Positions 3,721 through 31,614 of a stretch of 64,000 bases of DNA are shown here, one piece after another. The translations under genes and the position numbers were made by a program. This DNA is from a virus, in IMG/VR virus record IMGVR_UViG_3300045988_154312, positions 165,889 to 229,888 of that record; one strand, written 5' to 3'. The notes under the pieces are model-generated. The model did not search any database and was not told the DNA's origin. It saw nothing but the letters and a program-made list of their open reading frames with translations. Position 1 is the stretch's first letter; the number at the start of each line of letters is the position of its first letter.

Positions 3721-3746
3721 AAAAAAGACCCCGAAGGGCCGTTTTT
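3721..3746. terminator. candidate bidirectional terminator
   Basis: A6-gaccccgaagggcc-gttttt; the minus-strand version has a C(UUCG)G tetraloop plus a G-U pair. Confidence 0.5.
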
Positions 3747-3901
3747 ATATAATTATTTTTTTAATGTTCAGCTGTCGCTATCAATAATAAATTATTGGAA
3801 GCGGTGTAACGTAGTTACACCGGTATATTACTCACTTTAGATGCTTAGTTGTCAAAAAATAAAAAAATATTTTTTATTTAATTATATATATAGCAAACAA
3901 T

Positions 3902-3942
3902 AAAAAAAAACAGCCTTAGATTTTTATATCCAAGACTGTTTT
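3902..3942. terminator. candidate bidirectional terminator (imperfect stem)
   Basis: A9 - acagcctt ... aagactgt - tttt. Confidence 0.4.
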
Positions 3943-4098
3943 GTGTGTGTAAATTTCAGGAGCGGTGAACTGCGTTCACCGGTATATTACTCATATTAGT
4001 ATATCATTAATTAATTTTGTAAAAATAATTAAATATTCATTATTAATGCATAATTGAAAGTACGGATATTTTTAAGTAAAAAAAATACAAAAAATTAA

Positions 4099-4745: not shown

Positions 4746-4801
4746 GATGTATTTGGTCCGATGTATTTGGTCCGATGTATTTGGTCCGATGTATTTGGTC
4801 A
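4746..4801. repeat. four tandem 14-bp iterons (GATGTATTTGGTCC x3 plus GATGTATTTGGTCA)
   Basis: Read directly; head-to-tail with no spacer. Confidence 0.95.
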
Positions 4802-5335: not shown

Positions 5336-5355
5336 GTGCTCCGCACCGAAATCTC
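5336..5355 (+). promoter_or_regulatory. conserved hairpin-CGAAATC motif, copy A
   Basis: gtgc-tcc-gcac cgaaatctc; same architecture as 19700 and 25628, with a compensatory stem change. Confidence 0.5.
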
Positions 5356-5398: not shown

Positions 5399-5599
5399 AT
5401 GAATCAATATTTAGTCGATCAGATTGTCGACCATAGCGACTGGATACGGTATACGCGTCCAAGGAAGATGTGTTATTCTGACGATATAAGCAAGAAATAT
5501 GATCTAGATAATATAATCGTAGCAATTAGCGAAAGTTATTATAAATATAGTGCTGAATTATATTTACAATATTATATGTATTTAATAGTAGCAGAATAA
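5399..5599 (+). CDS. YY-tail small protein family member
   Basis: C-terminus ...SAELYLQYYMYLIVAE. Confidence 0.55.
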   Translation: MNQYLVDQIVDHSDWIRYTRPRKMCYSDDISKKYDLDNIIVAISESYYKYSAELYLQYYMYLIVAE

Positions 5600-5615
5600 A
5601 TGGAGGAAACTAATA

Positions 5616-5879
5616 ATGAAATATTTAATACAAGAAAAAGTTGTCGGCGATATTAATCTTGAAATCGAAGCTTCCGATATGGTTAAAGCTGTTAAATTAG
5701 CTAGAAAATATATCGAAGATAATTATAAAGATATTTTTATCGACTACGATTGTTTCCAAGAGAAACAAGTGTTTGGTTGTTCTGATCGAGAATTTAATAA
5801 AGACAGTAAAGAAGGATTTATTATGATTATTCGTGAAGACAAAAAAACAATGAGTCATTTTGAAATAAAAGTTAAATAA
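5616..5879 (+). CDS. hypothetical protein
   Basis: 87-aa ORF; ggagg SD upstream. Confidence 0.65.
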   Translation: MKYLIQEKVVGDINLEIEASDMVKAVKLARKYIEDNYKDIFIDYDCFQEKQVFGCSDREFNKDSKEGFIMIIREDKKTMSHFEIKVK

Positions 5880-5886
5880 AGTCGTT

Positions 5887-6090
5887 ATGAATAAGAATGA
5901 ATTAATCGATAATATTATCGATGCGGCCTGGATAATAAAAACAAAATATCCAAAATATATGCCGTCCCGAAACTTTCATATAGTCGACGTTATTACAAAA
6001 ATTACTGTATATAGTAATGGTAGTCAAGAAATTAACGGTATGATTTATTATAGCTATTATTTATTTTTAGGACATTTAGATTATGAATAA
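5887..6090 (+). CDS. YY-tail family member
   Basis: C-terminus ...GMIYYSYYLFLGHLDYE. Confidence 0.65.
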   Translation: MNKNELIDNIIDAAWIIKTKYPKYMPSRNFHIVDVITKITVYSNGSQEINGMIYYSYYLFLGHLDYE

Positions 6091-6286
6091 ATCAAAGTTT
6101 TTCAATGAATTGGTATATTATAATATCGATAAATGTAAGATAAATAAATATGAAAAATATAATGTCGTTTATAATACTGGTTATAGTATTCTTAGGAATT
6201 ATATTATTTATCGTAATGGCGACGAAAAATATAGTGCAAACATATATGTTTATTATTATCTATATTTAAGTTTAGAACATATATAA
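6083..6286 (+). CDS. YY-tail family member
   Basis: C-terminus ...YSANIYVYYYLYLSLEHI. Confidence 0.65.
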   Translation: MNKSKFFNELVYYNIDKCKINKYEKYNVVYNTGYSILRNYIIYRNGDEKYSANIYVYYYLYLSLEHI

Positions 6287-6298
6287 AGGAGGGATTAT

Positions 6299-6526
6299 AT
6301 GGAATGTTATACTATATCTAAAAGAGAAATATTTATATCAGAAGTCAGAAGAATGACATCTAACGTTATGTGCATTTCATATTTCCCCCATCGGAATATT
6401 GAGCCGGCATACTTTAATTTAATGGAAGGAATGTCTTATGACGGCGTAAAAAAAGATCCTTTATTCTTATACGATTATTATATATATTTATCTCTTCTAG
6501 AATTAGGATATTATAATGAACCATAA
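6299..6526 (+). CDS. YY-tail family member
   Basis: C-terminus ...LFLYDYYIYLSLLELGYYNEP; aggaggg SD. Confidence 0.65.
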   Translation: MECYTISKREIFISEVRRMTSNVMCISYFPHRNIEPAYFNLMEGMSYDGVKKDPLFLYDYYIYLSLLELGYYNEP

Positions 6527-6734
6527 ATTAAATAATATAGTTAGTAGAGAAAATTCAAAATTGCCTAATAAGATTTATAATAAATATATAGCAAGGCCAG
6601 ATATTCAAGGCGACTTATTAGTATATTATGATCTCGTATATGAATATGTATCTAATGGTATTGCATTATATGATTATTATATATTTTTAAATTATGTAGA
6701 ATTAGGATACGATAATGGACTGCAAAATAAATAA
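6516..6734 (+). CDS. YY-tail family member (LPxELYNKYI subfamily)
   Basis: ...LPNKIYNKYI...ALYDYYIFLNYVELGY. Confidence 0.65.
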   Translation: MNHKLNNIVSRENSKLPNKIYNKYIARPDIQGDLLVYYDLVYEYVSNGIALYDYYIFLNYVELGYDNGLQNK

Positions 6735-6909
6735 TATAATTTTTAATCATAATTTATTGTTACCTGATGAACTTTATAATAAATATATAATAAAACCAAA
6801 TTTTTATAGTCGTATGGTAGTTTATTTCGGTCTTAGATATAAATACATATCTAATTCAAAAGAACTATATGACTATTATATATATTTATCATTAACAGGA
6901 ACATTATGA
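6715..6909 (+). CDS. YY-tail family member (LPxELYNKYI subfamily)
   Basis: ...LPDELYNKYI...ELYDYYIYLSLTGTL. Confidence 0.65.
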   Translation: MDCKINNIIFNHNLLLPDELYNKYIIKPNFYSRMVVYFGLRYKYISNSKELYDYYIYLSLTGTL

Positions 6910-7115
6910 AAGAATATCATTTATCAGAAGTATTAAGAATAACTTATCTTGTATACACTAAATATAATCGTAAGTATGATATAGATCTTAATTTTTTAAT
7001 GTGTAGAAAATGAAATAATATTATCGTATATATAAATGAATATAACGATACGTATTCTGGTAACTTATATTATGATTATTATATATATTTAAGTTTAATG
7101 GATAACAGTATATGA
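6906..7115 (+). pseudogene. YY-tail family copy with an in-frame TGA at 7011-7013; close paralog of 14215..14424
   Basis: Translation MKEYHLSEVLRITYLVYTKYNRKYDIDLNFLMCRK*NNIIVYINEYNDTYSGNLYYDYYIYLSLMDNSI. The paralog has TTA (Leu) where this copy has TGA. Confidence 0.7.
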
Positions 7116-7309
7116 ATTGGAAAATGAAGTATTATCTAATAAATTTTGAATATGATATAGTGAGCAATTCATTTAGATGTAATACACAAAAATATATACT
7201 AGTTAATAATTCAAAATTTTTATATAATATAAATCTTGATGACGATACAAGGAATAGTGGATTTTATTATTATTACTATATATACTTAATGTTTATTGAC
7301 AAGAGCTAA
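7112..7309 (+). CDS. YY-tail family member
   Basis: C-terminus ...SGFYYYYYIYLMFIDKS. Confidence 0.65.
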   Translation: MNWKMKYYLINFEYDIVSNSFRCNTQKYILVNNSKFLYNINLDDDTRNSGFYYYYYIYLMFIDKS

Positions 7310-7321
7310 TAAGGAGAATAT

Positions 7322-7684
7322 ATGAAATTTGATCGATGTTTATTAAACGACAACACATATCTTTTCTTAGGCTATGATAAAGGACAAGAAGTATATTGCT
7401 TGCGAAATATTATATGCATTAGAATTAAAGGAGTTTTAATGGTCGACGCTAGTTTGTTAAGAGTAAGAAAACGCAGCGCCGATAGTTTTGATATTAAGAT
7501 GACATTACATATTAATAGTAATAATGAAGTGTATAGATCATCCTATATATCGTTAAAACATCCTAATAAAAGTATTGTTATTAGAGATGACGACAGTCAT
7601 CGTAAGGAATATATATTAGCATTAAGAAACTATATTATGGAATATAACAATATAGAACTATTAAGGAGTGAAAATATGTGTTAA
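7322..7684 (+). CDS. hypothetical protein
   Basis: 120-aa ORF; aaggag SD. Confidence 0.6.
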   Translation: MKFDRCLLNDNTYLFLGYDKGQEVYCLRNIICIRIKGVLMVDASLLRVRKRSADSFDIKMTLHINSNNEVYRSSYISLKHPNKSIVIRDDDSHRKEYILALRNYIMEYNNIELLRSENMC

Positions 7685-7998
7685 ACTTAATTTCAAAGTA
7701 TCAAGACGATATTAAAAACTTTATTATTAATAAATATAGTCTAGGTAAAAAAAAATATAATTTCGATTATTTTTGTGAATCAGTTTTTAATTTAAAAGAA
7801 CTTGATCTTTACTATAAAAATGCTTGTCATTGTAAAATTATAAAATATAGTTGGCATCATGATAAAGAAGATCCATATCCTAAAAATATTGTTATACAAT
7901 TTGAAAATAAAGAAACATTAAAAGATGTATCTCTTGATGATTTATTTTTAACAAAAAGTTCGTTAAAACAATACAATTGGTTTTTTAAAGAGAATTAA
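7678..7998 (+). CDS. hypothetical protein; paralog of 12198..12650 (WFFKE C-terminus)
   Basis: GTG start after aaggag; ...KIIKYSWHH...LFLTKSSLKQYNWFFKEN. Confidence 0.6.
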   Translation: MLNLISKYQDDIKNFIINKYSLGKKKYNFDYFCESVFNLKELDLYYKNACHCKIIKYSWHHDKEDPYPKNIVIQFENKETLKDVSLDDLFLTKSSLKQYNWFFKEN

Positions 7999-8013
7999 TA
8001 AGAAAGAACGCAC

Positions 8014-8343
8014 ATGAAACATTTATATTGTAAAGAAAAATTCGACAAAGAAAAATATGATCATATATTAAAATTAAAAGTATTAATATCTCAATGTAAT
8101 TGCGGTAGTATGCTTCTATATCTTAATAAAATAATGGTTAAATTAGAAGCAATTGAACGCATCGAGTTCGATAAAAATAATGAATATCAATTAACATTAT
8201 ATATTCATTATCAAAAAAACAATAAAGATCTTTATGAAATCATCGAAGTAAAATTTGAAGATTATGAAGAATTCGAAGAATATAAAGAAATGATCGGCGA
8301 CATTTTCTGTTATACATTTATTAACGAAGAAGCGACTTATTAA
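8014..8343 (+). CDS. hypothetical protein
   Basis: 109-aa ORF in the packed co-directional array. Confidence 0.55.
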   Translation: MKHLYCKEKFDKEKYDHILKLKVLISQCNCGSMLLYLNKIMVKLEAIERIEFDKNNEYQLTLYIHYQKNNKDLYEIIEVKFEDYEEFEEYKEMIGDIFCYTFINEEATY

Positions 8344-8354
8344 GGAGTAAAATT

Positions 8355-8669
8355 ATGGTACTAGAATTCTTAAGCGAAACCGATGCTCTTAATGCTTTTA
8401 CATTTCATGGACAAGATGTATTTAAAAGATTAAGAGAGCATCCATTATTCGTAGAAATTGAAAAAGAATATACACCGATAAAAGGCGAATCTATATTTAG
8501 TATCGGCTATGATTCTGGACTAGAAAATCGTTATGTTACACGATTTATTAAAATAAAACGATATAAGAATTATGTGCGATTAATTCCAGAAAACGATACA
8601 TATAATTGGATCGCAAAAGAATTAATCGATTTATTTATTTCCGATATGAAGTATAATGTTATTGTATAA
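8355..8669 (+). CDS. hypothetical protein
   Basis: 104-aa ORF; aaggag SD. Confidence 0.6.
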   Translation: MVLEFLSETDALNAFTFHGQDVFKRLREHPLFVEIEKEYTPIKGESIFSIGYDSGLENRYVTRFIKIKRYKNYVRLIPENDTYNWIAKELIDLFISDMKYNVIV

Positions 8670-8681
8670 GGAGTAAAAACT

Positions 8682-8891
8682 ATGAAAAATTACGACCATG
8701 TTATAAAAAACAAAATATTACCTGGCGGCAAGCTTATATCTGATTATCAGATTATGACAGGAAACGGCTTGAACGAAGTGGAGTTGGAATATATCGACGA
8801 AGTCGGTATTTTGCCAGTAGCCCCAAAAGATCAATGGATTATCCCGAAAGGCTACGTAGTTGATTTAGATGGCTGCGTTAAAAAAGCATGA
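8682..8891 (+). CDS. hypothetical protein
   Basis: 69-aa ORF; aaggag SD. Confidence 0.6.
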   Translation: MKNYDHVIKNKILPGGKLISDYQIMTGNGLNEVELEYIDEVGILPVAPKDQWIIPKGYVVDLDGCVKKA

Positions 8892-9196
8892 GAGATAAAA
8901 GTTACGCAATAGTATTTTATCACTATGATAAGAATAATAATTTTCATTACGGCGTTATTTCTTGTGAATACGGTTTTATGCGTCAATTATATTCTGCGTA
9001 TTATACATATATGACAGCTAGTATTGACTGTATGATTTCGATAATCGATGCTAACGAATTAAAGTATTTAGAAGAAATGGAACTAGCTTATGACGATCCA
9101 AATTATTATGCTAATGAAATACAAATGGCTATCGAAGAATGTAGCGTAACAGAATTGATTAAAAAATTAAATAAAAGAAGGGAAACTATACTATGA
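8888..9196 (+). CDS. hypothetical protein (internal LYSAYYTYM block resembling the YY motif)
   Basis: 102-aa ORF; ATGA start/stop overlap. Confidence 0.55.
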   Translation: MRDKSYAIVFYHYDKNNNFHYGVISCEYGFMRQLYSAYYTYMTASIDCMISIIDANELKYLEEMELAYDDPNYYANEIQMAIEECSVTELIKKLNKRRETIL

Positions 9197-9414
9197 AAAT
9201 ATTATTAGCAGGATTAATTATTGCTTTATTTACAGTATCAGCTATTGCCGCAAAAATATTAGGTATCGCAACAGTAATTGCTTTTGTATTAGCGTTAATC
9301 GGTTTATTCGATGTACAAATGAGTACGGCTATTAATTTATTATTATTAACAGTCGGCGCCGGAACTTTTGCAATTATTTTAATGGCTATCGGTAAAGTAT
9401 TAGCATTTAGATAA
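9193..9414 (+). CDS. small membrane protein (two hydrophobic helices)
   Basis: 73 aa, almost entirely hydrophobic. Confidence 0.6.
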   Translation: MKILLAGLIIALFTVSAIAAKILGIATVIAFVLALIGLFDVQMSTAINLLLLTVGAGTFAIILMAIGKVLAFR

Positions 9415-9415
9415 T

Positions 9416-9592
9416 ATGAATAAAAAACTATATCATGATATAACAAAACATATATATAGTATAAGTCTTAATAGAGATTTCGATAGATTTTTAATAGTAC
9501 TTAATCTTAATATAGATTTAACTAAAATATATGATAGCGAGATATACTATACTTTATATAAATATTATCTATATATAATGATTAAGATATAA
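9416..9592 (+). CDS. divergent short YY-tail family copy (58 aa, below the ORF-track cutoff)
   Basis: Own translation ...DSEIYYTLYKYYLYIMIKI. Confidence 0.4.
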   Translation: MNKKLYHDITKHIYSISLNRDFDRFLIVLNLNIDLTKIYDSEIYYTLYKYYLYIMIKI

Positions 9593-9602
9593 AAGGTTTT
9601 GT

Positions 9603-9800
9603 ATGAAAAATAGATTAGAACAGATCTTAGTAAATATTGAATACAATATGAGAAATGACTATTACTGCTATAGTATTATTAAAAAATATCGTATAAATAA
9701 TAATATTAGATTTAATCTTGGCGACGAAGATAGCTTTTTATTTGTCGATGAAAATTATTACTACTATTATATATATTTATGTATATTTAATATATCTTAG
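9603..9800 (+). CDS. YY-tail family member
   Basis: C-terminus ...DENYYYYYIYLCIFNIS. Confidence 0.65.
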   Translation: MKNRLEQILVNIEYNMRNDYYCYSIIKKYRINNNIRFNLGDEDSFLFVDENYYYYYIYLCIFNIS

Positions 9801-9827
9801 TATTAATATATATTTAACGAGGTGATT

Positions 9828-10442
9828 ATGAAAAGTTCAAACGATACGAGTTTAGATTACTCGTTAAAACATATGCTAAATAAAAACGACTATAAGATTG
9901 TGTATTATGGTCAACATATTATGAAAAATGACGATTGTTATTTGTATGACTATCATACAGAAATAGAGCATAAAAATAGTCCTTATCTTATTAGTATTTT
10001 TCGAGAAGGTAAGGCGTCGCGTTTTTACGAAGATAATAAAGATTATTATTTCGTAAAAATCGTAAATCAATTAAATAACGATCAAATATCTTATCAAAGA
10101 ATTAGCGAACGTTCTGAAGACGTAATTAAATATATCGTTAATAAATTATATGTTTTTAAAAATAATCAAGATATAGATTTATTAAAAGAATTTAAAGATC
10201 GATATACTAATATATTTGTTACAGAAGACAATAAAATATGTTTATTATTTGTTGCCAACAATAAATTCACAAATTTTATTATTAAATATGAAGACAAAGA
10301 ATATAAATTTATTATTTCGTTAGACGGTTGTGATAGAGCCGAAAGAACTGCTAATAATAGAATAGAATTAATTAATCGTATCGAAGAACGATTAATGGAA
10401 TTTGATGATATTACAGAAGGCATTAGGAGCGATATAAAATAA
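9828..10442 (+). CDS. hypothetical protein
   Basis: ORF track 9822..10442; the ATG at 9828 follows gaggtga. Confidence 0.6.
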   Translation: MKSSNDTSLDYSLKHMLNKNDYKIVYYGQHIMKNDDCYLYDYHTEIEHKNSPYLISIFREGKASRFYEDNKDYYFVKIVNQLNNDQISYQRISERSEDVIKYIVNKLYVFKNNQDIDLLKEFKDRYTNIFVTEDNKICLLFVANNKFTNFIIKYEDKEYKFIISLDGCDRAERTANNRIELINRIEERLMEFDDITEGIRSDIK

Positions 10443-10771
10443 TGGCTATTGAATTTAAATTTGATGAAGATATAAAGTTAATATATCAAGATTTTACGTA
10501 CGATATATTTATTGACGATCATTGCACAAAATATGAAATATATGATAGCGGAAATGCCGTAACTGGATATATTCGTTTATTTATATTAAATAAAGAAACT
10601 AATTATATTAAAATTCTTAACGATATTTTTATCGAAATTGATCGTAATAATAATTTTATCTATATAGATCGAGATAATATTAGAGATGAATTATATCTTG
10701 TCCAATTATTAGAATTGAACGAAATTAAAAAATCTATATATAACTATATCGACAATATATCAGGATATTAA
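10442..10771 (+). CDS. hypothetical protein
   Basis: 109-aa ORF; TAATG coupling. Confidence 0.55.
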   Translation: MAIEFKFDEDIKLIYQDFTYDIFIDDHCTKYEIYDSGNAVTGYIRLFILNKETNYIKILNDIFIEIDRNNNFIYIDRDNIRDELYLVQLLELNEIKKSIYNYIDNISGY

Positions 10772-10779
10772 TATGAAAA

Positions 10780-10986
10780 ATGAACGATAAAATAAGAAAA
10801 ATAATTTTTAATTATAATCTACAAATGCCTTGTGAACTTTATAATAAGTATATAATACGCTCAAATATGTATAATCGTATGATAATTTGTTTTAGTGCTA
10901 AACATAATTGTTCATCTAAAACAAAAGAATTATATGATTATTATATATTTTTAAATTGTATGGATATAATTAGACGAAATTACTAA
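10780..10986 (+). CDS. YY-tail family member (LPxELYNKYI subfamily)
   Basis: ...MPCELYNKYI...ELYDYYIFLNCMD. Confidence 0.65.
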   Translation: MNDKIRKIIFNYNLQMPCELYNKYIIRSNMYNRMIICFSAKHNCSSKTKELYDYYIFLNCMDIIRRNY

Positions 10987-11001
10987 TAAGGAGGCGATCA
11001 T

Positions 11002-11334
11002 ATGAACTTCGAATATAATAAAGAGAAATACATGTATAAAAATATTAAAGACGAATTACCATTCGATGATGATAGTTATATGTGGCGAAGTGATGAATAC
11101 GGGCTATATGGCGTTGAATTTTATCCGGTAGAAGCACCAGGATCAAACGGTAAATTAGCTCAATGCTTCGGAAAGAATTTAGCTTTAGAAAGTTATGCAT
11201 CTTACGATTCTATGTATTTAACAGAGAAATCTGCAATCGACTTCGAAATCGATAAGATTATTTTTAAAAATATCACGAATCAAAAAGAACTTAATTATAT
11301 GTATGAATTATTAATGTTAAAACAAAATGAATAG
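11002..11334 (+). CDS. hypothetical protein
   Basis: 110 aa; aaggagg SD. Confidence 0.6.
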   Translation: MNFEYNKEKYMYKNIKDELPFDDDSYMWRSDEYGLYGVEFYPVEAPGSNGKLAQCFGKNLALESYASYDSMYLTEKSAIDFEIDKIIFKNITNQKELNYMYELLMLKQNE

Positions 11335-11530
11335 TCAAAAAATAAAACTTTTAAGAAATACTTGTGAAGGCCATATTTTAAATTTGGATAATCATATATA
11401 TATAAAATATGCATTATCGACAAACATTGAAAAAGATGGACTTGACCGTATTGAATCTGACGATGTTCTTTTTATGGGTCTTAGTTTTATATATAATTAT
11501 TACATATATTTAAGTTATGTAGAATTATAA
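11327..11530 (+). CDS. YY-tail family member
   Basis: C-terminus ...LSFIYNYYIYLSYVEL. Confidence 0.65.
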   Translation: MNSQKIKLLRNTCEGHILNLDNHIYIKYALSTNIEKDGLDRIESDDVLFMGLSFIYNYYIYLSYVEL

Positions 11531-11544
11531 AAAGGATTAATAAT

Positions 11545-11874
11545 ATGTATAATAGTAATTGTTATTTAAATTTTAGGACTGATTTATTTGCCGACACTTT
11601 TTTTAACGTAATTCAAAAACATCATGACCTAGAAATTCGTTGTGAACAAGCATTATGGGTACCGTTCGATTATTTATTGTATAAGAATACTATTACAATA
11701 AAATATAAAAATCAATATAACGAAGAACTAACATTAATTCTCAATAAAGATAACGAAATAATAAAAGCAACGACCGTCGTTAAAGAAAAATATCCAGAAG
11801 ACGGCACCGATTCGTTTTATTTTATCAATGCATTTCAAGAAGTAATGTTCAACGATTATTTTTTAAAGGATTAA
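11545..11874 (+). CDS. hypothetical protein; tandem paralog of 11879..12196
   Basis: Both start with F-x-T-x-x-FA-x-x-F and end with FNDYFLKD / YNDYFIGE. Confidence 0.55.
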   Translation: MYNSNCYLNFRTDLFADTFFNVIQKHHDLEIRCEQALWVPFDYLLYKNTITIKYKNQYNEELTLILNKDNEIIKATTVVKEKYPEDGTDSFYFINAFQEVMFNDYFLKD

Positions 11875-11878
11875 TATT

Positions 11879-12196
11879 ATGTATATAAGATTTAAAACAA
11901 AAAAATTCGCTACTGAATTTATTGATGCAGTAAAAAAGAGCGCAGGAAAATCATTCTATTTTAAAGAATTCGGTACATGGGATTTTTATTATATCAACGA
12001 AAAAGAAAACGGAATCGTAATATCATATCGAAATAGAAAAACAGATTATATTATAATAATAAATATTTTTATTGATAAGTATATGAAAAATCAAATAATT
12101 TTTAATACGTACGAAGGATATGATTCTATATATACTCCGTTATTTTATAATGAATATAAACAATTATTTTATAACGATTATTTTATCGGTGAATAA
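11879..12196 (+). CDS. hypothetical protein; tandem paralog of 11545..11874
   Basis: See 11545..11874. Confidence 0.55.
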   Translation: MYIRFKTKKFATEFIDAVKKSAGKSFYFKEFGTWDFYYINEKENGIVISYRNRKTDYIIIINIFIDKYMKNQIIFNTYEGYDSIYTPLFYNEYKQLFYNDYFIGE

Positions 12197-12197
12197 A

Positions 12198-12650
12198 ATG
12201 GATGAACACATAATAGAAAATAAAAACTTTTGGGATATTATGTTTAATGAATTAGATAAGACTACCAATGAAGATTGGAAAAAATTTGTCGAAAAGCATG
12301 ACGAGGAAAGGAATAAAAAAATGGATAAACAATTATTTTTAAGATATCGAGATCATTTTGATAATCTTATCAGAGAAAAATATCTTCTCGACAACAAAAC
12401 ATATGACTTCGATAACTACGATATCGAAGATTTTGAATTTGAAAAATTAGATTTTTATTATGACGACGGCCGTGAATGTAAAATCGTAAAATACGATTGG
12501 GACGGCGAAGGAAAATGGTCTTATATTAATAACATTACAATTCGTTTTTCTAACGGCGAAATAATGGAGCACGTAAGCGGATATCATCTTTTCTTAACAG
12601 TAGAATCATTAGAAAAATATGGCTGGTTCTTTAAAGAAGACGACTATTAA
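12198..12650 (+). CDS. hypothetical protein; paralog of 7678..7998
   Basis: ATG at 12198 (MDEHIIENK...) within ORF 12120..12650; ...KIVKYDWDG...LFLTVESLEKYGWFFKEDDY. Confidence 0.6.
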   Translation: MDEHIIENKNFWDIMFNELDKTTNEDWKKFVEKHDEERNKKMDKQLFLRYRDHFDNLIREKYLLDNKTYDFDNYDIEDFEFEKLDFYYDDGRECKIVKYDWDGEGKWSYINNITIRFSNGEIMEHVSGYHLFLTVESLEKYGWFFKEDDY

Positions 12651-12664
12651 TAGTATTTTGTCAA

Positions 12665-12832
12665 ATGAACGATAAACTAATAAGAATGATAAATAAGTTT
12701 CATAGGCACCATTGTGAATCATATACTGGATATTATCGAACATATAGTATTAGATTTAATGTATCTCCTAACTATGTTAAATATATGCCCGATATATTAT
12801 TTCATTATTATGAGTATTATACTTATATATAA
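12665..12832 (+). CDS. divergent short YY-tail copy (55 aa)
   Basis: Own translation ...PDILFHYYEYYTYI. Confidence 0.35.
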   Translation: MNDKLIRMINKFHRHHCESYTGYYRTYSIRFNVSPNYVKYMPDILFHYYEYYTYI

Positions 12833-12843
12833 AGGAGAGATTT

Positions 12844-13056
12844 ATGAGATATAAAGTCGTATTTACTAAATTTAAAGGATTGAATCATTTCGAAGAAACC
12901 GAAAGTGCCAGCGACATAATCAAAGAATTCGTTAAACAAAACAATGCTTTAAAAATAAGAAATATTTTTACCGAAGATAATATTACCTTTGGTAAAGTTC
13001 AAGATCTCGATGGTTTTGATTACGGTATGATTATTATTAAAGAAGTTGCATCATGA
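12844..13056 (+). CDS. hypothetical protein
   Basis: 70 aa; aaggagag SD. Confidence 0.6.
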   Translation: MRYKVVFTKFKGLNHFEETESASDIIKEFVKQNNALKIRNIFTEDNITFGKVQDLDGFDYGMIIIKEVAS

Positions 13057-13238
13057 TTAAAATAATAAATCAAAAGTTAGTCGATGCCGTTTTTAAATAC
13101 GATGATTATGAGCCTAACGATCTTGTTCAATATTTAACGTGCGAAAATTTCGAAGAAAAATATTATACATATATGTATACTAATGGTGAATATTATTACT
13201 ATTTTTATCTATCAATAGGATTAATTTGTAATCTATAA
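13053..13238 (+). CDS. YY-tail family member
   Basis: C-terminus ...NGEYYYYFYLSIGLICNL. Confidence 0.6.
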   Translation: MIKIINQKLVDAVFKYDDYEPNDLVQYLTCENFEEKYYTYMYTNGEYYYYFYLSIGLICNL

Positions 13239-13262
13239 AAGCGAACATATATCCGCTTTTAA
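13238..13262 (+). terminator. weak candidate terminator
   Basis: aaagcg-loop-cgcttt followed by a T-run. Confidence 0.35.
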
Positions 13263-13297
13263 GAATTTATGCAGTTTAATAATAATAGCAGGATTTT

Positions 13298-13326
13298 TTG
13301 TAAAAAAAAGTATTTTATGATATAAT
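13298..13326 (+). promoter_or_regulatory. sigma70-like promoter
   Basis: TTGTAA (13298-13303), 17-nt spacer, TATAAT (13321-13326). Confidence 0.6.
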
Positions 13327-13359
13327 AAAAGGTTATGATATACTAATAAGGAGAATAAT

Positions 13360-13590
13360 ATGACTGAAAAAGAAGCAATAATTATCGAAGAAATATATTT
13401 AATAGAAAATTAATTAAAAGAAAAAACATTAGATTATTTTCTCGATAAATATTATGGCGGTAAAACCTTAGAAAAATTACAACCATTTCAACGAGAAAAA
13501 ATATTAAAATGGATGCAGTCATGTCTCGAAAACGAAGAGATGGCTCTCGATAATATTAGTAGTTGGGCTTTAGAACATGGATATTTCTAA
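13360..13590 (+). pseudogene. 77-codon reading frame interrupted by an in-frame TAA at 13411-13413
   Basis: aaggaga SD plus ATG 13360. Translation MTEKEAIIIEEIYLIEN*LKEKTLDYFLDKYYGGKTLEKLQPFQREKILKWMQSCLENEEMALDNISSWALEHGYF. Confidence 0.5.
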
Positions 13591-13593
13591 ATC

Positions 13594-13815
13594 ATGACTG
13601 ATAAATTTATAGAAAAAGTATACATTACGTTACAAATTAAAATATCGTTAGATATATTTAATCAGGATCTCGAGCGTTTTTTAATGGAAACAAATGCCAG
13701 AAAATTATATCGTATATATATTTTAACTAATAAAAATCAGAAATATGATGATTACTATGGCTATTATCTATACTTATTACTATGTACCGATACTTTATTG
13801 GAAGGAATAATATAA
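13594..13815 (+). CDS. YY-tail family member
   Basis: ...DDYYGYYLYLLLCTD. Confidence 0.6.
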   Translation: MTDKFIEKVYITLQIKISLDIFNQDLERFLMETNARKLYRIYILTNKNQKYDDYYGYYLYLLLCTDTLLEGII

Positions 13816-14015
13816 TGTATACTGATAAGCTAGTAAAATATATGTCTTTAAAAAACGATCAGTATTATAAAGACGGTAATACTAAATATCTTTCGCTTAA
13901 TAATTTAAATAATCCTAAAGCGATATTTTCATATAAAGCGTATCAGGATCAAGAAGGAATAGCATATAGTGCCAATATATACTACTGGTATTATCTATGC
14001 TTAATATTAATATGA
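13815..14015 (+). CDS. YY-tail family member
   Basis: ATG at 13815 (TAATG coupling) within ORF 13782..14015; ...YSANIYYWYYLCLILI. Confidence 0.6.
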   Translation: MYTDKLVKYMSLKNDQYYKDGNTKYLSLNNLNNPKAIFSYKAYQDQEGIAYSANIYYWYYLCLILI

Positions 14016-14218
14016 ATGGAAAAACAAATGAATTTAAGTTTTCATTAAAATTATTTGATCGTAAAATAAAAAGTAATAGCATATATATAAAATTAACACC
14101 AACAATTAATTGTCGAACAGTATATATTTTATTTATTAAAAATATAAAATATCGTAAATTATATTATTATTATATATATTATACATATTTATCATTATTA
14201 GATGTAGACACACTATGA
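14012..14218 (+). CDS. YY-tail family member
   Basis: ATG at 14012 (ATGA coupling); ...KLYYYYIYYTYLSLLDVDTL. Confidence 0.55.
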   Translation: MNGKTNEFKFSLKLFDRKIKSNSIYIKLTPTINCRTVYILFIKNIKYRKLYYYYIYYTYLSLLDVDTL

Positions 14219-14424
14219 AAGAATATCATTTATCAGAAATATTAAGGATATCTTATCTTGTATATACTAGATATAATCGTAAGTACGATATAGATCTTAA
14301 TCTTTTAATATGTAGAAAATTAAACAATACTGTCGTATATATAAATGAATATAACGACAAATATTCTGGTAACTTATATTATGATTATTATATATTTTTA
14401 TTGTTGTTAGGTAATATCGAATGA
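14215..14424 (+). CDS. YY-tail family member; intact paralog of pseudogene 6906..7115
   Basis: MKEYHLSEILRISYLVYTRYNRKYDIDLN...YSGNLYYDYYIFLLLLGNIE. Confidence 0.65.
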   Translation: MKEYHLSEILRISYLVYTRYNRKYDIDLNLLICRKLNNTVVYINEYNDKYSGNLYYDYYIFLLLLGNIE

Positions 14425-14615
14425 CTAATAAAATGATAAAAGAATTAAATATATATATGAATACAATACAGGATAGTAGGCATTTAAGTATGCGATATAT
14501 TAGAATACTTGATAATATATCGATGCTACCAACATATTTTAAATTTAATCGTGGCCCATGTCAGTATTTATCTTGGTATTTTTTATACTATTTTTATAAT
14601 CAGGAATTAAAATGA
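14421..14615 (+). CDS. divergent YY-tail family member
   Basis: ...YLSWYFLYYFYNQELK. Confidence 0.5.
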   Translation: MTNKMIKELNIYMNTIQDSRHLSMRYIRILDNISMLPTYFKFNRGPCQYLSWYFLYYFYNQELK

Positions 14616-14827
14616 TTGCGAACAATAAACTCGACGGCGTATTAGAATATTTTACAGAAGACATGTGTTATCATGACGAAATAGAGCCTGGTAGCGAACC
14701 ATTTTTAATGTTATATAATACACATGTTATTTTCGATTTAGATGACTGTCCAAATTTATATTATTACTATTATAGTTTTTATATATATGTTATGTTAATT
14801 AAGGAAGAAGGTCTATATGAAATTTAA
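14612..14827 (+). CDS. YY-tail family member
   Basis: ...NLYYYYYSFYIYVMLIKEEG. Confidence 0.6.
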   Translation: MIANNKLDGVLEYFTEDMCYHDEIEPGSEPFLMLYNTHVIFDLDDCPNLYYYYYSFYIYVMLIKEEGLYEI

Positions 14828-15029
14828 AGTATTACTATTAACAGTTCTGTTAGGTGTATCCGTATTAAGTATTAATGCATACGATTCCGATAAAAAAGAG
14901 TGTAATCAATATTTAGACTGTAAATATTATCAAAATGTGAATATTATTAACTTACATTATGAAAATGACGGAAAATCTGTTAAATTGGTACAACCTAATA
15001 ACAGTTTTCATTATAAAAAAACAAAATGA
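14817..15029 (+). CDS. small secreted protein (N-terminal signal peptide)
   Basis: MKFKVLLLTVLLGVSVLSINA|YD... Confidence 0.6.
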   Translation: MKFKVLLLTVLLGVSVLSINAYDSDKKECNQYLDCKYYQNVNIINLHYENDGKSVKLVQPNNSFHYKKTK

Positions 15030-15250
15030 TCAGCAAACAAAATAGAGCTCTGTCGATAACTTATCGAGGTATAAAATTATACGAGAATTTTAATAAATAT
15101 TCTATTGTTAATAATTTAAAAATTCACGACAAATTAACAAATATATGTGTATATAATGACAATGAACGCATGTTTAGTGCTAATATGTATTATAGTTATT
15201 ATGTTATATTACATTTAATTGACGAAAAATTTAAAAGGAGAAGGACATGA
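15026..15250 (+). CDS. YY-tail family member
   Basis: ...FSANMYYSYYVILHLIDEK. Confidence 0.6.
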   Translation: MISKQNRALSITYRGIKLYENFNKYSIVNNLKIHDKLTNICVYNDNERMFSANMYYSYYVILHLIDEKFKRRRT

Positions 15251-15714
15251 ATTGTGAGAAGAATTTGAAAATTAAGTCTTCGGGCTTAACAAAGTTGTTG
15301 CGATCTATGAATTACAATACGTCTGTCGTCGTTATTAAAACAGATTACGGTTATAAAACAACGTTAATGGCTTTACGTGACGATGGTAATTTTTTACAAT
15401 TAACAGTATGCTTAAATTATCATGGTAGCATTGTCGATACTATACATATTCGTATGAATAATACTAAGAAAGATTTAAAATACGAAGATTTTATTTATTT
15501 TAAAGCTAACGATCCGTATACTGAACGTAAGGACTTATCCGAAGCTATTGCTAATTTAATTATTAATACGAATAGAAAAGTCGATATGTTTTATACTTTT
15601 TCATTAAAAAATATTAAAACAGCCTTATTAGACCCAGTATTAATTAGACAATATTTATCTGTGCAACGACAAATGAATAGAATTACTAATACTATTAATG
15701 AAGTAAAGATTTAA
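15247..15714 (+). CDS. hypothetical protein
   Basis: 155-aa ORF; ATGA coupling. Confidence 0.6.
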   Translation: MNCEKNLKIKSSGLTKLLRSMNYNTSVVVIKTDYGYKTTLMALRDDGNFLQLTVCLNYHGSIVDTIHIRMNNTKKDLKYEDFIYFKANDPYTERKDLSEAIANLIINTNRKVDMFYTFSLKNIKTALLDPVLIRQYLSVQRQMNRITNTINEVKI

Positions 15715-15716
15715 AA

Positions 15717-15977
15717 ATGGTTTATAATATTATTAAATATAGCAGACATAATAACGATACATATGTATATATACAAAAAATGCCTGGCATTTATAATCGA
15801 AATCTAAGTTTATATTTTGCATATATATATAGTATATTCGACTTTAAGTTTCGATATAGTATTGTTAAAGATATAGATTTTCAAGCATATGTTAATTTTA
15901 GATTATTAGATGAAAGTATTAATCCTAAAAATGTCGACATCTTAAATATATTAAAGAGTAAAAATTATGAAATATAA
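15717..15977 (+). CDS. hypothetical protein; probable tandem paralog of 15967..16251
   Basis: Shared KMP...SLY[FI][AT]Y[IL] blocks. Confidence 0.5.
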   Translation: MVYNIIKYSRHNNDTYVYIQKMPGIYNRNLSLYFAYIYSIFDFKFRYSIVKDIDFQAYVNFRLLDESINPKNVDILNILKSKNYEI

Positions 15978-16251
15978 AATATTATTAAGAAAGATGCCAG
16001 TCGATGAATATGCCTATGAATTATGTTACGATGCTTTTAATAGTAATTTTAATAGTTCTTTATATATAACATATTTGTTGTTTAATATGTATCCAAAAAG
16101 TAGTGTATATTTAGTTAGCAATACAAAATTAGAGGCATTAGTGTCAATACCTACCCCTGATTATATATTTATGGAAGAGTTAGAAAAACATAATTTATTA
16201 AGTATTATAGAAAGAAATAAAGATGAATCTATTAAGCGAGACAGAATATAA
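15967..16251 (+). CDS. hypothetical protein; probable tandem paralog of 15717..15977
   Basis: See 15717..15977. Confidence 0.5.
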   Translation: MKYKILLRKMPVDEYAYELCYDAFNSNFNSSLYITYLLFNMYPKSSVYLVSNTKLEALVSIPTPDYIFMEELEKHNLLSIIERNKDESIKRDRI

Positions 16252-16588
16252 ATTAAAAGAGCTTGGCCTCACATTAGACGATATTCAGTTTGTGATGTGT
16301 ACGGAATCTGAATACGGTAGCGACTTTATTTTTATGAACAAAGATACGTTTATTGGAAAGGCTACCCTCGTTAATTACGATAATGGATATGGATCTCAAG
16401 AGATTAAAAATAACTTAACAATTTATACTAAGACTCATATCATTTATCGATTTGAATACGACGGAGCAGAATGCTGGAAATATATTCCGACAATTACTGG
16501 CCTTGACGAATTCTTACAGGATGAAAAAAACTGGAAAGAATTTAAGCTTGAATCAAAGGATTATTATGAAAAACAAATTCCGTTCTAG
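16223..16588 (+). CDS. hypothetical protein
   Basis: 121-aa ORF. Confidence 0.6.
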   Translation: MNLLSETEYKLKELGLTLDDIQFVMCTESEYGSDFIFMNKDTFIGKATLVNYDNGYGSQEIKNNLTIYTKTHIIYRFEYDGAECWKYIPTITGLDEFLQDEKNWKEFKLESKDYYEKQIPF

Positions 16589-16718
16589 AATTAATAAATG
16601 GATTAAAACTAAAATCTCATCAGTATTGCTTCCATATTATACATGGATAGTATTTGAAAAGCAGGAAAAAATTGGTGAAAAAAATTTAAATTATACCACA
16701 TTTATTTCTTTTTCTTAG
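16566..16718 (+). CDS. small hypothetical protein (50 aa)
   Basis: ATG at 16566 after aaagga, within alternative-frame ORF 16452..16718. Confidence 0.35.
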   Translation: MKNKFRSRINKWIKTKISSVLLPYYTWIVFEKQEKIGEKNLNYTTFISFS

Positions 16719-16779
16719 AAAAATATTTATAATTATAATAAAGAAGAGAAATAATTGTGGATTTTTTTATAGGAAAAAT

Positions 16780-17082
16780 ATGAGTGAAACATATATAATT
16801 TCGTCATATGCAAAAAATGATAGGGATCGATTATGTCGGTTTAAAACATATAAAGCTGATAATATGTTCGTTCGAGCATACCATCTAGCATATTATGTAT
16901 ATATTAGTTATGCGTATGAGAAATATCGTATTTGTATATATCCAGAAGGAACGATAGGCAATCGATACGATATAACGTTCGAGCAGATTGCTGAAATGTA
17001 CGATATTGTTCATTGTATTAAAAATAAAGAGTATAGCAAAAAAATGAATTCTAAAAAACGTAAGTGGTTGAAAATATTTTAG
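16780..17082 (+). CDS. hypothetical protein (internal AYHLAYYVYISYAY block)
   Basis: 100-aa ORF after a short intergenic gap. Confidence 0.55.
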   Translation: MSETYIISSYAKNDRDRLCRFKTYKADNMFVRAYHLAYYVYISYAYEKYRICIYPEGTIGNRYDITFEQIAEMYDIVHCIKNKEYSKKMNSKKRKWLKIF

Positions 17083-17092
17083 GAGGTATTTA

Positions 17093-17395
17093 ATGGGTTA
17101 TACGTTAAAACATAGTATTGAAAAAACTGCCAAAATTATTAATAATCTTGATATTAATCAGTTTAATGGCGATCGTCAAAACTATTATATTGAGTCAGTA
17201 GAGTTTGTTAACGAAGGTATATTCCCATCAATTCGTTTTATTATTAGAAATGACCAGACTGGTGCAATTGATAAACGTTGCGGTATGTTGCGCAAAATTC
17301 CGAATAGTAACGAAGTCGAATATCGTGACGGAACAGTTAAAATGTATGACGGTATCATCTGGACATTTTTAAAAGAAGCAGGTATAACATTATGA
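17093..17395 (+). CDS. hypothetical protein
   Basis: 100 aa; aggagg SD. Confidence 0.65.
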   Translation: MGYTLKHSIEKTAKIINNLDINQFNGDRQNYYIESVEFVNEGIFPSIRFIIRNDQTGAIDKRCGMLRKIPNSNEVEYRDGTVKMYDGIIWTFLKEAGITL

Positions 17396-17586
17396 ATCAT
17401 AAAAATTATTATGATATCTGTGATTCAGCTCAAAAAATTTATGATAATAATCCTGCATTTTTTCCAGGAAATAATATTAAGAATGATGCAAAAACTAAAA
17501 TGAGAGAATTCAATGTTATTGGTGACGAATTTAATGCTTTATTCTACTATGAATATATTATGTATTTAATCGGAAAAAATTTATAA
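17392..17586 (+). CDS. YY-tail family member
   Basis: ...FNALFYYEYIMYLIGKNL. Confidence 0.6.
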   Translation: MNHKNYYDICDSAQKIYDNNPAFFPGNNIKNDAKTKMREFNVIGDEFNALFYYEYIMYLIGKNL

Positions 17587-31600: not shown

Positions 31601-31614
31601 AGGAGGTGTGCCTC

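Follow-up and report, generated by a model that had tools for sequence, protein, structure and literature searches.

Large eukaryotic DNA viruses carry multigene families such as the ASFV MGFs and the poxvirus host-range families, and cassette recombination at anchor sequences occurs in Neisseria pilE/pilS, in Borrelia vls and at the "boundary sequences" of mosaic lambdoid phages. The host-takeover module of Bacillus phage SPO1 is composed of about 26 small early genes with products that bind single host targets, for example ClpCP or HU (PMC6873191, PMC8892312). Recombination between short homologies alters the copy number of phage counter-defense genes, at dmd-tifA in T4 (PMC9391042) and in T6, where the amplification is driven by SegB (PMC13096335). 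Accordion dynamics in large viruses have been reviewed, with the poxvirus K3L accordion as cited there (PMC13359090).

The window analyzed here, a 64-kb stretch from an uncultivated ~230 kb human-oral phage with about twenty diverged copies of a ~65-residue protein, contains a previously undescribed, lineage-restricted multigene family. Like the SPO1 module, the array is a dense block of same-strand small ORFs without database homologs, placed upstream of replication genes and beside non-coding or terminal DNA in a large phage of the Firmicute type. The SPO1 genes, however, do not form a single paralogous family, no similarity in sequence or fold between them and the present family was found, and early timing, sigma-A promoters and a terminal-redundancy location are features of the SPO1 module that would be at most putative for this phage. 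As in the K3L, dmd-tifA and SegB accordions, the copy number of accessory genes changes via short homologies and array length scales with copy number, a pattern fitting arms-race logic. Accordions are recent, near-identical tandem repeats of counter-defense genes selected for dosage and use fortuitous microhomology, whereas this family is old and diverged, the homology in question is a conserved coding motif in every unit, and a defense role is only a candidate. The ASFV and poxvirus families share with it the lineage-specific paralog arrays near variable regions, copies gained and lost from strain to strain and a presumed host-interaction role, but these viruses belong to another realm, the proteins here are much smaller and not homologous, and the junctions here map to a definable tract within the genes. 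A short conserved sequence beside variable segments is a substrate for homologous exchange as in pilE/pilS, vls and the lambdoid boundaries; unlike pilE/pilS and vls, the array has no division into expression site and silent cassettes.

The features of the array are collected in Table 1. All 21 ORFs counted in the sequence-only reading are present, each beginning where that reading had put it and each encoding 55-75 amino acids, and its two named subfamilies (LPxELYNKYI type and MKEYHLSE type) are real. The window holds 20 solid members, one doubtful member (14421) and one pseudogene (6906). Thirteen + strand ORFs, none of them outside 5887-15250, contain the strict motif YxYY[hydrophobic]xL, which is absent from all other ORFs on either strand of the 64 kb. 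All-versus-all phmmer comparison gives 15 pairs at E<1e-3 compared with 0 in 10 shuffled sets, and leave-one-out HMMs place 18 of the 21 held-out members above all ~1,370 shuffled decoys. In leave-one-orthogroup-out profile-profile comparison P is <=5e-4 for 20 of 21 members and 0.11-0.85 for unrelated neighbor genes. The proposal of a family beyond AT-rich composition thus stands for these 20, joined at the profile level, and not securely for 14421, where the weak link (P~0.01) involves an alignment of the N-terminal 16 columns only. The longer ORFs at 8888, 15717, 15967 and 16780, thought to carry a similar block, are not demonstrably related, with profile P values (0.04-0.26) in the control range. 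The mean column identity of the family is ~25%.

Table 1. Members of the family and associated sequence elements in the window
Feature	Position	Strand	Details
Member, subfamily B, 66 aa	5399..5599	+	motif YLQYYMYL 5561-5584; hhalign P=1.2e-6; dN/dS 0.19-0.24
Member, subfamily B, 67 aa	5887..6090	+	motif 6046-6069; leave-one-out E=2.5e-8; P=3.9e-7
Member, subfamily B, 67 aa	6083..6286	+	motif 6245-6268; P=1.5e-6
Member, linked to subfamily A, 75 aa	6299..6526	+	motif 6467-6490; P=2.1e-6
Member, subfamily A (LPxxxYNKYI type), 72 aa	6516..6734	+	motif 6666-6689; P=6.6e-6
Member, subfamily A, 64 aa	6715..6909	+	motif 6865-6888; left boundary of 6906 duplication
Pseudogene and recombinant chimera	6906..7115	+	TGA 7011-7013; crossover within motif tract 7068-7091
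Member, subfamily C, 65 aa	7112..7309	+	motif YYYYYIYL 7265-7288; P=1.1e-6; dN/dS 0.14-0.28
Member, profile-level link only, 58 aa	9416..9592	+	motif 9554-9577; P=1.5e-5; leave-one-out 13.2 bits, above all decoys
Member, subfamily C, 65 aa, resolved chimera	9603..9800	+	motif 9756-9779
Member, subfamily A, 68 aa	10780..10986	+	motif 10930-10953; P=2.2e-6
Member, linked to subfamily A, 67 aa	11327..11530	+	motif 11489-11512; P=4.5e-4
Member, 55 aa	12665..12832	+	motif 12806-12829, reaches C terminus; P=5e-4; leave-one-out 14.0 bits, above all decoys
Member, profile-level link only, 61 aa	13053..13238	+	motif 13194-13217; P=8.6e-6; single-sequence leave-one-out marginal
Member, subfamily C, 73 aa	13594..13815	+	motif 13753-13776; dN/dS 0.10-0.22
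Member, subfamily B, 66 aa from ATG 13815	13815..14015	+	motif 13980-14003; P=8e-6
Member, 68 aa from ATG 14012	14012..14218	+	motif 14168-14191; P=1.8e-4
Member, subfamily B (MKEYHLSE type), 69 aa	14215..14424	+	motif YYDYYIFL 14377-14400; 6906 donor type; modeled protein
Doubtful member, 64 aa	14421..14615	+	tail YFLYYFYN without closing Leu; P~0.01; below top decoys
Member, profile-level link only, 71 aa	14612..14827	+	motif 14768-14791; P=3.9e-6; dN/dS 0.08-0.09
Member, subfamily B, 74 aa	15026..15250	+	motif 15188-15211; P=1.3e-7
Member, subfamily B, outlying copy, 64 aa	17392..17586	+	motif 17545-17568; P=2.9e-5
16-nt GC-rich element GCTCCGCACCGAAATC	5338..5353	+	head of the transcription unit of the array
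Extended -10 sigma-A-like promoter candidate TTGTAA-17-TGATATAAT	13298..13326	+	consensus match

The conserved positions are hydrophobic residues of the N-terminal helix, K27-Y28-x4-N33 and Y57-Y58-x-Y60-Y61-h62-Y63-L64. Asn-33 is present in 172 and Tyr-28 in 149 of 183 unique sequences, and the N-terminal halves, described as variable, are therefore not simply so, with Lys-27, Tyr-28 and Asn-33 conserved. The AlphaFold model of the 14215 protein (pLDDT 82.3, pTM 0.65) shows a small α/β domain with the predicted order helix, short helices, β-hairpin and helix, the tyrosine motif lying within the C-terminal helix (residues 53-66). The same topology is predicted for the 6715 protein of subfamily A (pLDDT 69), and for three relatives there are independently built models in BFVD, which match with TM values of 0.61-0.70; a PDB search with the predicted structure found no analogous fold among solved structures. 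The conserved residues would form the structural core, with the surface free to vary. The C-terminal helix is hydrophobic or aromatic round almost its whole circumference, which is difficult to bury in a 65-residue monomer, so the helix may contribute to oligomerization or partner binding rather than to a simple core.

The family evolves as protein under purifying selection, the outcome of the synonymous versus non-synonymous comparison being constraint at the protein level, and its description as an unnamed paralogous family is supported. The pooled omega is 0.29 (CI 0.23-0.37) and 0.32 (CI 0.25-0.40), compared with 0.23 for neighbor genes and 0.68-1.0 for shifted frames, and the per-gene dN/dS medians are 0.23 and 0.33 compared with 0.23 and 0.21 for neighbors. 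Values for the family are a little above those of the neighbors and a few close pairs are near 1 (0.78 for 10780 and 1.0, at a dS of 0.055, for 14215). The doubtful 14421 does evolve as coding sequence (dN/dS 0.19-0.45).

The genes follow one another head to tail between the large non-coding region and the replication genes, the stop codon of one often overlapping the start codon of the next, and form one or two polycistronic units headed by the conserved 16-nt element. As the sequence-only reading had it, this early-gene-like ORFan block lies downstream of a large non-coding stretch (~3.8 kb). The GCTCCGCACCGAAATC element has 3 copies compared with 0 expected, the others at 19702-19717 and 25631-25646; in 21 related loci it is present on the + strand with perfect conservation, and in most of these one copy precedes the first family gene by ~45-75 nt. 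The element may act as a promoter or regulatory site. The sigma-A-like candidate sits in the sole large true gap inside the array. A Shine-Dalgarno (SD)-like motif precedes 8 of 21 members compared with 63 of 107 other genes, so translation of the members may depend on coupling. The genome carries its own sigma-like factor and ClpP/ATPase.

The family has zero matches in Pfam, PHROG, NCBIfam, PADLOC and the PDB, and an exhaustive HMMER search confines it to one clade of 210-236 kb phages. The helicase of the phage is only ~35% identical to those of Firmicute phages. The relatives have 9-21 copies each in units of 9.0-14.4 kb, with array length scaling with copy number (r=0.87 across related loci that are not phylogenetically independent, several being near-duplicates). 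There are at least 41 orthogroups, of which only 3 are universal and 25 are found in no more than 25% of loci. Within any one genome each orthogroup is represented at most once, and the sole recent duplicate is already a pseudogene. This copy, 6906, is interrupted as proposed, by a single TGA at codon 36; TGA ends 30 of the 131 genes in the genome and is thus a genuine stop.

The ~24-27-nt TA-rich motif tract is the longest DNA identity common to otherwise diverged paralogs, and its consensus GAYTATTATATATWTTTA has 11 matches compared with 1.06 expected, all on the + strand. In-register exact identity of at least 12 nt is found for 11 paralog pairs at the motif and for 1 at Asn-33. Four chimeras are fully resolved among rearrangements between relatives. 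The body of 6906 is 91% nucleotide-identical to 14215, which has TTA in place of the TGA, and its tail and the sequence after it belong to the resident gene of relatives L003 and L004; 9603 combines the body of L003_4190 with the tail and downstream sequence of L003_4393. Comparisons with 9 relatives place a junction at the 13594 gene. Pairs anchored at the motif are discordant in 70 cases and concordant in 255, compared with 4 and 325 when anchored at the Asn-33 codon. Left-type breaks all occur before the stop codon (58/58), 45 of them within 6 nt of the motif end, and 11 of 12 right-type breaks lie no more than 3 nt from where the motif starts. Fast, indel-rich evolution of unconstrained tails could explain some of the breakpoints near the motif. 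Unequal or ectopic recombination recurrently crosses over at the tract, yielding chimeras with the body of one gene and the tail of another and deleting, inserting or swapping the genes lying between, which accounts for the range of 9-21 copies and for the pool of at least 41 orthogroups from which they come. As the exchanged tails are short (0-14 residues), the main outcome is a change in gene content and not new protein variants. The suggestion of a recombination site holds as a mechanism of family evolution; recombination as the reason for conservation of the tract goes beyond the evidence.

A phage-internal role, with the members as oligomerizing adaptors or chaperones, transcription-timing regulators or superinfection-exclusion factors using a tyrosine-helix zipper, is possible but unlikely. 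The all-round hydrophobic helix suggests an interface, the sigma-like factor and ClpP/ATPase are encoded in the same genome, and known anti-defense proteins show no similarity to the family. Such machinery, however, is usually single-copy and conserved, whereas universal orthogroups number only 3 of 41 and relatives differ more than 2-fold in copy number, and the pI range of 4.1-9.7 argues for many different partners. We regard it as improbable that similarity of the motif is kept mainly by recombination or gene conversion in an array of dispensable, self-propagating cassettes, even with the clustering of junctions on the motif, the extreme turnover with few universal orthogroups, the pseudogene copy and the slightly relaxed omega. 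Purifying selection extends along the whole protein and to non-recombining orthogroups, the motif is conserved as amino acids with normal synonymous variation and several codons at positions 62 and 64, K-Y-x4-N, which no junction lies near, is also conserved, and exact in-register identity through the motif has a median of only 6 nt for the window paralogs, unlike the product of homogenization.

Action of the conserved element in DNA or RNA, as a -10/UP promoter element, an RNA-processing site or a translational signal, has very little probability. The tract does resemble a -10 box just upstream of the next start codon, its consensus is strongly over-represented and found on the + strand only, and there is some enrichment, relative to background, of ATA at position 62 and of TTA at position 64. 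The distance from the motif end to the next ATG is nevertheless 5-48 nt, with two cases of 223 and 376 nt, many ATGA or TAATG overlaps leave no room for a transcription start and SD sequence, promoter-like sites are not enriched (160 compared with 156.6 expected), and good extended -10 promoters sit in true intergenic gaps instead. The reading frame of the motif never changes, the nucleotides of positions 59 and 62 vary with the residue class kept, and tyrosine third positions vary at the background rate: TAC makes up 10.0% of motif tyrosine codons, 8.5% of other family tyrosine codons and 12.2% in non-family genes, and 13 of 61 motif tyrosine columns are synonymously polymorphic compared with 12 of 55 others. 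The promoter or UP-element alternative is consequently rejected, as spacing to the next ATG is not fixed and synonymous sites have no extra constraint. Chance likeness of Tyr/Ile/Leu/Asn-rich short ORFs, some perhaps not genes, in a genome of 25% GC has a negligible probability despite the regional GC of 22-27%, the frequency of tyrosine in neighbor genes (7.7%) and the longer ORFs that are compositional look-alikes only, and is refuted by the shuffle and decoy controls, minus-strand ORFs (no profile match in 27 sources, the window and 26 loci), the frame control (ortholog omega ~0.3 compared with 0.68-1.0 in other frames) and the conserved, non-aromatic Asn-33, with structure models confident and mutually consistent.

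The best explanation overall, which we consider reasonably probable, is an undescribed family with recombination at the motif tract and an early, host-directed binder role. A host-takeover or anti-defense reading fits the position, small size, diversified surfaces (pI 4.1-9.7) and very high turnover of the repertoire, with "early" and "host-directed" drawn from position and analogy alone. As no orthogroup is doubled within a genome and the recent duplicate is a pseudogene, selection appears to favor diversity of the repertoire and not dosage. The family is probably a repertoire of host-directed binder proteins, probably expressed early, in which each paralog probably binds a different host, host-defense or competitor target.

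All 21 ORFs that the sequence-only reading had grouped into a family of ~65-amino acid proteins with a tyrosine-rich C-terminal tail (named here by start coordinate, 5399 to 17392) were located as described, together with the interrupted copy 6906, and their similarity exceeds that attributable to AT-rich composition when judged against shuffled sets, decoys and unrelated neighbouring genes. The strict motif YxYY[hydrophobic]xL is present in 13 plus-strand ORFs, all within 5887-15250, and in no other ORF on either strand of the 64 kb. An all-versus-all phmmer comparison yields 15 pairs at E < 1e-3 where ten shuffled sets yield none, two robust subfamilies emerge from jackhmmer with 0 of ~1,370 decoys picked up, and 18 of the 21 members outscore every decoy in a leave-one-out HMM analysis. 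When the profile of each member's orthologues is compared with a profile of all other members, P is ≤5e-4 for 20 of the 21 (most being 1e-5 to 1e-7), whereas unrelated neighbour genes give P = 0.11-0.85. Membership of the remaining ORF, 14421, is doubtful (P ~0.01), and for the longer ORFs 8888, 15717, 15967 and 16780, proposed to carry a similar block internally, kinship to the family is not demonstrable (P = 0.04-0.26); the original observation is largely correct, with 14421 and these four longer ORFs being its unsupported parts.

Related loci were collected from relative phages using the conserved neighbouring gene 11002 as the query; an IMG/VR search with the 14215 protein alone found no relative. 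The 183 unique members gathered from the window and 26 loci (27 sources) show that the signature is not confined to the tail, as the N-terminal helix has conserved hydrophobic positions and is followed by K27-Y28-x4-N33, with Asn-33 present in 172 of the 183 sequences, and by the tail signature Y57-Y58-x-Y60-Y61-[ILMV]62-Y63-L64. The minus-strand ORFs of all 27 sources gave no match to the family profile. Tyrosine makes up 15.0% of family residues compared with 7.7% in neighbouring genes, and the pI ranges from 4.1 to 9.7. For window orthologues compared with two diverged relatives (loci L003 and L004), the median dN/dS per gene is 0.23 and 0.33 for the family and 0.23 and 0.21 for the neighbours, with a pooled omega of 0.29 (bootstrap CI 0.23-0.37) and 0.32 (0.25-0.40) for the family and 0.23 for the neighbours. 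Shifted-frame readings of the same alignments give omega values of 0.68-1.0, and both comparisons bear out purifying selection on the amino acid sequence.

The statement that this is no named family also holds, with searches of Pfam (best E = 0.022, for one of the 21 members only), PHROGs (every E ≥ 0.04), PADLOC and NCBIfam (single chance-level matches only) and PDB sequence profiles (0 matches at E ≤ 1) all lacking a significant match, and with nothing from Rfam within the family region. Word-indexed searching of 5.8 billion proteins gave 23 matches. The 11 obtained by scanning 1.84 billion representatives exhaustively with HMMER come only from the same phage clade. The matches from both searches are all 64-84 amino acids long, and the contigs examined carry them in the same syntenic arrays. 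Taken with the selection analysis, these results show that the protein family is real and new, restricted to one lineage and subject to purifying selection.

The AlphaFold2 model of the 14215 product, calculated from a 40-sequence alignment (pLDDT 82.3, pTM 0.65), is composed of a helix (residues 3-19), short helices, a β-hairpin (40-51) and a helix carrying the Tyr motif (53-66). The product of 6715, from a different subfamily, shares this topology in a less confident model (pLDDT 69). The models show the Tyr motif as part of the predicted C-terminal helix, which may act as an interface because it is hydrophobic on nearly all faces. It is likely that the conserved residues form a scaffold on which the surfaces have diversified. 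A Foldseek search of the PDB gave no match (best E 8.9), for which reason a winged-helix reading was dropped. In BFVD the only meaningful Foldseek matches are three uncharacterised proteins of ~65-73 amino acids from one uncultivated myovirus (TM 0.61-0.70, identity 25-36%), which look like independently modelled family members. A tail-anchored or transmembrane reading was dropped on sequence grounds, the hydrophobic run being about 12 residues compared with a criterion of ~18 or more uninterrupted, and position 59 being usually Ser, His, Asp, Glu or Asn; the neighbouring gene 9193-9414 provides an example of a true membrane protein in the same genome.

As an alternative to protein-level conservation, it had been proposed that the TA-rich codons of the tail act in the DNA, as a recombination site or as a promoter. 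The recombination half of this proposal is supported as an evolutionary mechanism, with the junctions of relatives mapping to the motif tract (the ~24-27 nt that encode the Tyr block). The 6906 copy has 91% nucleotide identity to the non-adjacent 14215 from the start through to the motif; left of the motif it is 14215-like and right of it the sequence is that of the resident gene of L003 and L004, with the switch point lying within the shared tract TATATTATrATTATTATATATwTTTA. It carries a one-step TTA-to-TGA nonsense change and is a pseudogene; read-through of the TGA by stop-codon recoding was rejected because TGA ends 30 of 131 genes. Four chimeras joining the body of one gene to the tail of another were resolved, 6906 included. 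Window member 9603 is composed of the L003_4190 body (locus and gene start) joined to the tail of the adjacent paralogue L003_4393 and the sequence downstream of it, L023_1592 of the L012_8034 body with the L012_8688 tail, and L013_494 of the L007_5617 body with the L007_5823 tail.

A systematic junction test relied solely on gapped scoring calibrated against shuffles, ungapped breakpoint scoring being confounded by tail indels and a first gapped scoring being too permissive. Anchored on the motif, 70 gene-context pairs are discordant, with similarity on one side and unrelated sequence on the other, and 255 are concordant, compared with 4 discordant and 325 concordant pairs when anchored on the Asn-33 codon. 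Where similarity is lost downstream, the break precedes either stop codon in 58/58 pairs and lies ≤6 nt from the motif end in 45/58; where it is lost upstream, the break lies ≤3 nt from the motif start in 11/12. Inspection of the breakpoint list gives at least 12 distinct recombination events (cluster-based event counts are threshold-sensitive and are not primary evidence). The motif is also the longest in-register identity between diverged paralogues, with runs of ≥12 nt in 11 window pairs at the motif compared with 1 at Asn-33 and a median of only 6 nt, and paralogue identity at the motif falls in the range of the short homologies driving T4 rearrangements (PMC9391042). These results show that array rearrangements preferentially have their junctions in the motif tract.

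A 16-nt GC-rich element, GCTCCGCMCCGAAATC, heads both the gene block containing the family (the unit) and the next unit, and complete units could thus be delimited in 15 loci, representing about 10 distinct configurations. These hold between 9 and 21 family copies, the window having the maximum, and unit length (9.0-14.4 kb) correlates with copy number (r = 0.87). At 60% identity the family members of the 15 loci form 41 orthogroups, of which 3 are universal and 25 are confined to ≤25% of loci, and no orthogroup occurs twice in one unit. The sole recent duplicate is the pseudogene 6906, which is not next to 14215. The array has an old, diverse repertoire shaped by birth-and-death and re-assortment and is not the product of recent dosage amplification.

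The promoter half of the DNA-level proposal is rejected. The distance from the motif end to the next ATG varies from 5 to 48 nt, many junctions between successive genes being ATGA or TAATG overlaps, and promoter-like sites are not enriched (160 found, 156.6 expected), a sigma-70 scan being uninformative in DNA of 25% GC. Convincing extended -10 sites, such as 13298-13326, are placed in the few true gaps. There is no additional synonymous constraint, as TAC accounts for 10.0% of Tyr codons in the motif, 8.5% in the rest of the family and 12.2% in non-family genes, and invariant Tyr columns within orthogroups show synonymous polymorphism in 13/61 cases in the motif and 12/55 elsewhere. By these codon-level measures the motif is without constraint beyond the protein code, illustrating for annotation that a conserved, promoter-like TA-rich tract can be purely protein-constrained yet shape genome architecture.

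The window is AT-rich (GC content 22-27% over the region), and the plus strand carries all large ORFs of the window, whose features are collected in the table.

Features of the window surrounding and within the family array
Feature	Coordinates	Strand	Remarks
Two higher-GC genes	end at 1279		
Repeat-rich non-coding stretch	after 1279 to about 5.1 kb		
Scattered GC-rich GCGAGCGAAGCGA(GC) repeats	1740-2330 (at 1808, 1895, 2108, 2246)		TATATA-rich DNA and short inverted repeats (CTCTCTTCCAAGAGAG, for example) lie between them
Rfam RF03053 "OTKONC RNA" (sRNA) match	3401-3571	+	Full length; 138.5 bits, just below the 141.4-bit gathering score; E = 5.8e-22
Three ~35-nt repeat units, form GGAGCGGTGAA...CACCGGTATATTACTCA	3637-3673, ~3797-3834, 3959-3993 (within 3600-3995)		
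Terminator-like hairpins	3601-3615, 3727-3740, 3907-3942	-	One adjoining each ~35-nt unit
GATGTATTTGGTCC x4 in tandem	4746-4801		Just upstream of putative early block; resembles iterons or a protein-binding array
ORFan block	about 5.1-36 kb		No Pfam or PHROG match (transposase listed separately)
16-nt GC-rich element GCTCCGCMCCGAAATC	5338-5353, 19702-19717, 25631-25646	+	3 copies, 0 expected
Extended -10 promoter candidate, then strong SD, then 17-codon mini-ORF MTEKEAIIIEEIYLIEN	13298-13413 (mini-ORF from 13360)		Only large gap within array
Paralogue pairs outside the Tyr family	11545-12196; 27309-28062; 29885-30988; 7678-7998 and 12120-12650		In ORFan block
IS605/TnpB-like transposase	31606-32706		PHROG 506, E = 1e-129
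Transposase flanks	30989-31614, 32707-33021		Long, GC-rich, structured-looking
Nucleotide-metabolism and replication genes	from 36 kb onward		Guanylate kinase, ClpP and ATPase, thymidylate synthase, radical-SAM activase, UvsX-like recombinase, helicase, RNA ligase/PNK, sigma-like protein
ClpP protease, phage-encoded	in 38124-39988		Pfam E = 2.6e-62; 431-aa AAA-type ATPase directly downstream
~80-nt segment similar to other phage DNA	45254-45340 (gap 45172-45369)		GC-rich, structured-looking; just upstream of UvsX-like ORF

The GCTCCGCMCCGAAATC element is perfectly conserved in 21 related loci, always on the plus strand and always within an intergenic gap heading a gene block. Two copies can fold into a hairpin of 5-bp stem and 3-nt loop (GGGGC-TCC-GCCCC). 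The element is not sigma-A-like and may be a phage-specific promoter or a site for a regulator. The mini-ORF in the array gap may be a leader peptide or regulatory ORF. The OTKONC RNA, located in the non-coding stretch preceding the array, may be a phage-borne RNA of the same clade, since no mention of it was found in the literature searched. The 1740-2330 region may be an origin, a pac site or a terminal region, and it is where several metagenome contigs break; contig ends vary in position in or close to the array and the non-coding stretch.

A 229,885-bp human oral metagenome contig and several relatives of 210-236 kb match the window. Among 50,697 phage records, megablast with the region as query detected no close cultured phage. 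The helicase is ~35% identical to helicases from Firmicute phages, Bacillus jumbo phages among them; matches to the IS605-like transposase are only 30-57% identical, scattered over phyla and uninformative on the host. In L003 a resolvase and an OrfB_IS605 gene are inserted within the family array. Two proteins of the ORFan block have a common C-terminal KYxW...FLT.SL..Y.WFFKE domain, and the other paralogue pairs of this block indicate that gene duplication is common there beyond the Tyr family. Farther downstream, ClpP and the adjacent ATPase look like a phage-borne Clp-like proteolytic system. The ~80-nt segment upstream of the UvsX-like ORF is 85-90% identical to mostly unannotated Herelleviridae and SPbeta-like phage DNA and gave no match in tRNA and Rfam searches. 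The UvsX-like ORF matches only the middle of its profile, and the segment may be an intron remnant or part of a split gene.

Multigene families of large eukaryotic viruses are close analogues of the array, having neither sequence nor fold likeness to the Tyr family. The same applies to the host-takeover module of SPO1 (PMC6873191, PMC8892312) and to counter-defence accordions (PMC9391042, PMC13096335; reviewed in PMC13359090). As in a genomic accordion or birth-and-death array, copy number varies between close relatives and scales with array length, and rearrangement junctions fall at short shared homologies, here the motif tract; unlike a strict dosage accordion, the family is without recent near-identical tandem amplification. 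PHROG searches gave no homology to known takeover proteins, and the exhaustive HMMER scan returned only the same phage clade. The host-takeover or anti-defence role first suggested from gene position is plausible by analogy with these systems, in which case the proteins would probably be expressed early and bind host or defence components, with one target per paralogue, and selection would favour diversity of the repertoire. A more speculative reading, to which we assign a low probability, is that the Tyr-helix codon tract is a selected dual-use module, serving as fold core and as a recombination anchor in each unit, and that the array is a self-diversifying cassette system. If so, co-infection could allow relatives to re-assort rapidly a pan-repertoire of binders that target the host or its defences, making the array the phage equivalent of antigenic-variation cassettes and distinct from dosage accordions.

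The birth-and-death array itself ranks among the larger paralogue expansions known from phages, with a pan-repertoire of at least 41 orthogroups on one confidently predicted fold without a solved analogue. It provides a natural record of array evolution, with a defined intragenic tract to which the junctions can be assigned, and ties the short-homology amplification observed in the laboratory in T4 and T6 to the long-term evolution of wild human-associated phages. Large early-ORFan blocks of large phages are the source of the new host-takeover and anti-defence proteins now being found, and the family offers a prioritised set of candidates, in which universal and rare orthogroups can be directly compared in binding or anti-defence screens.
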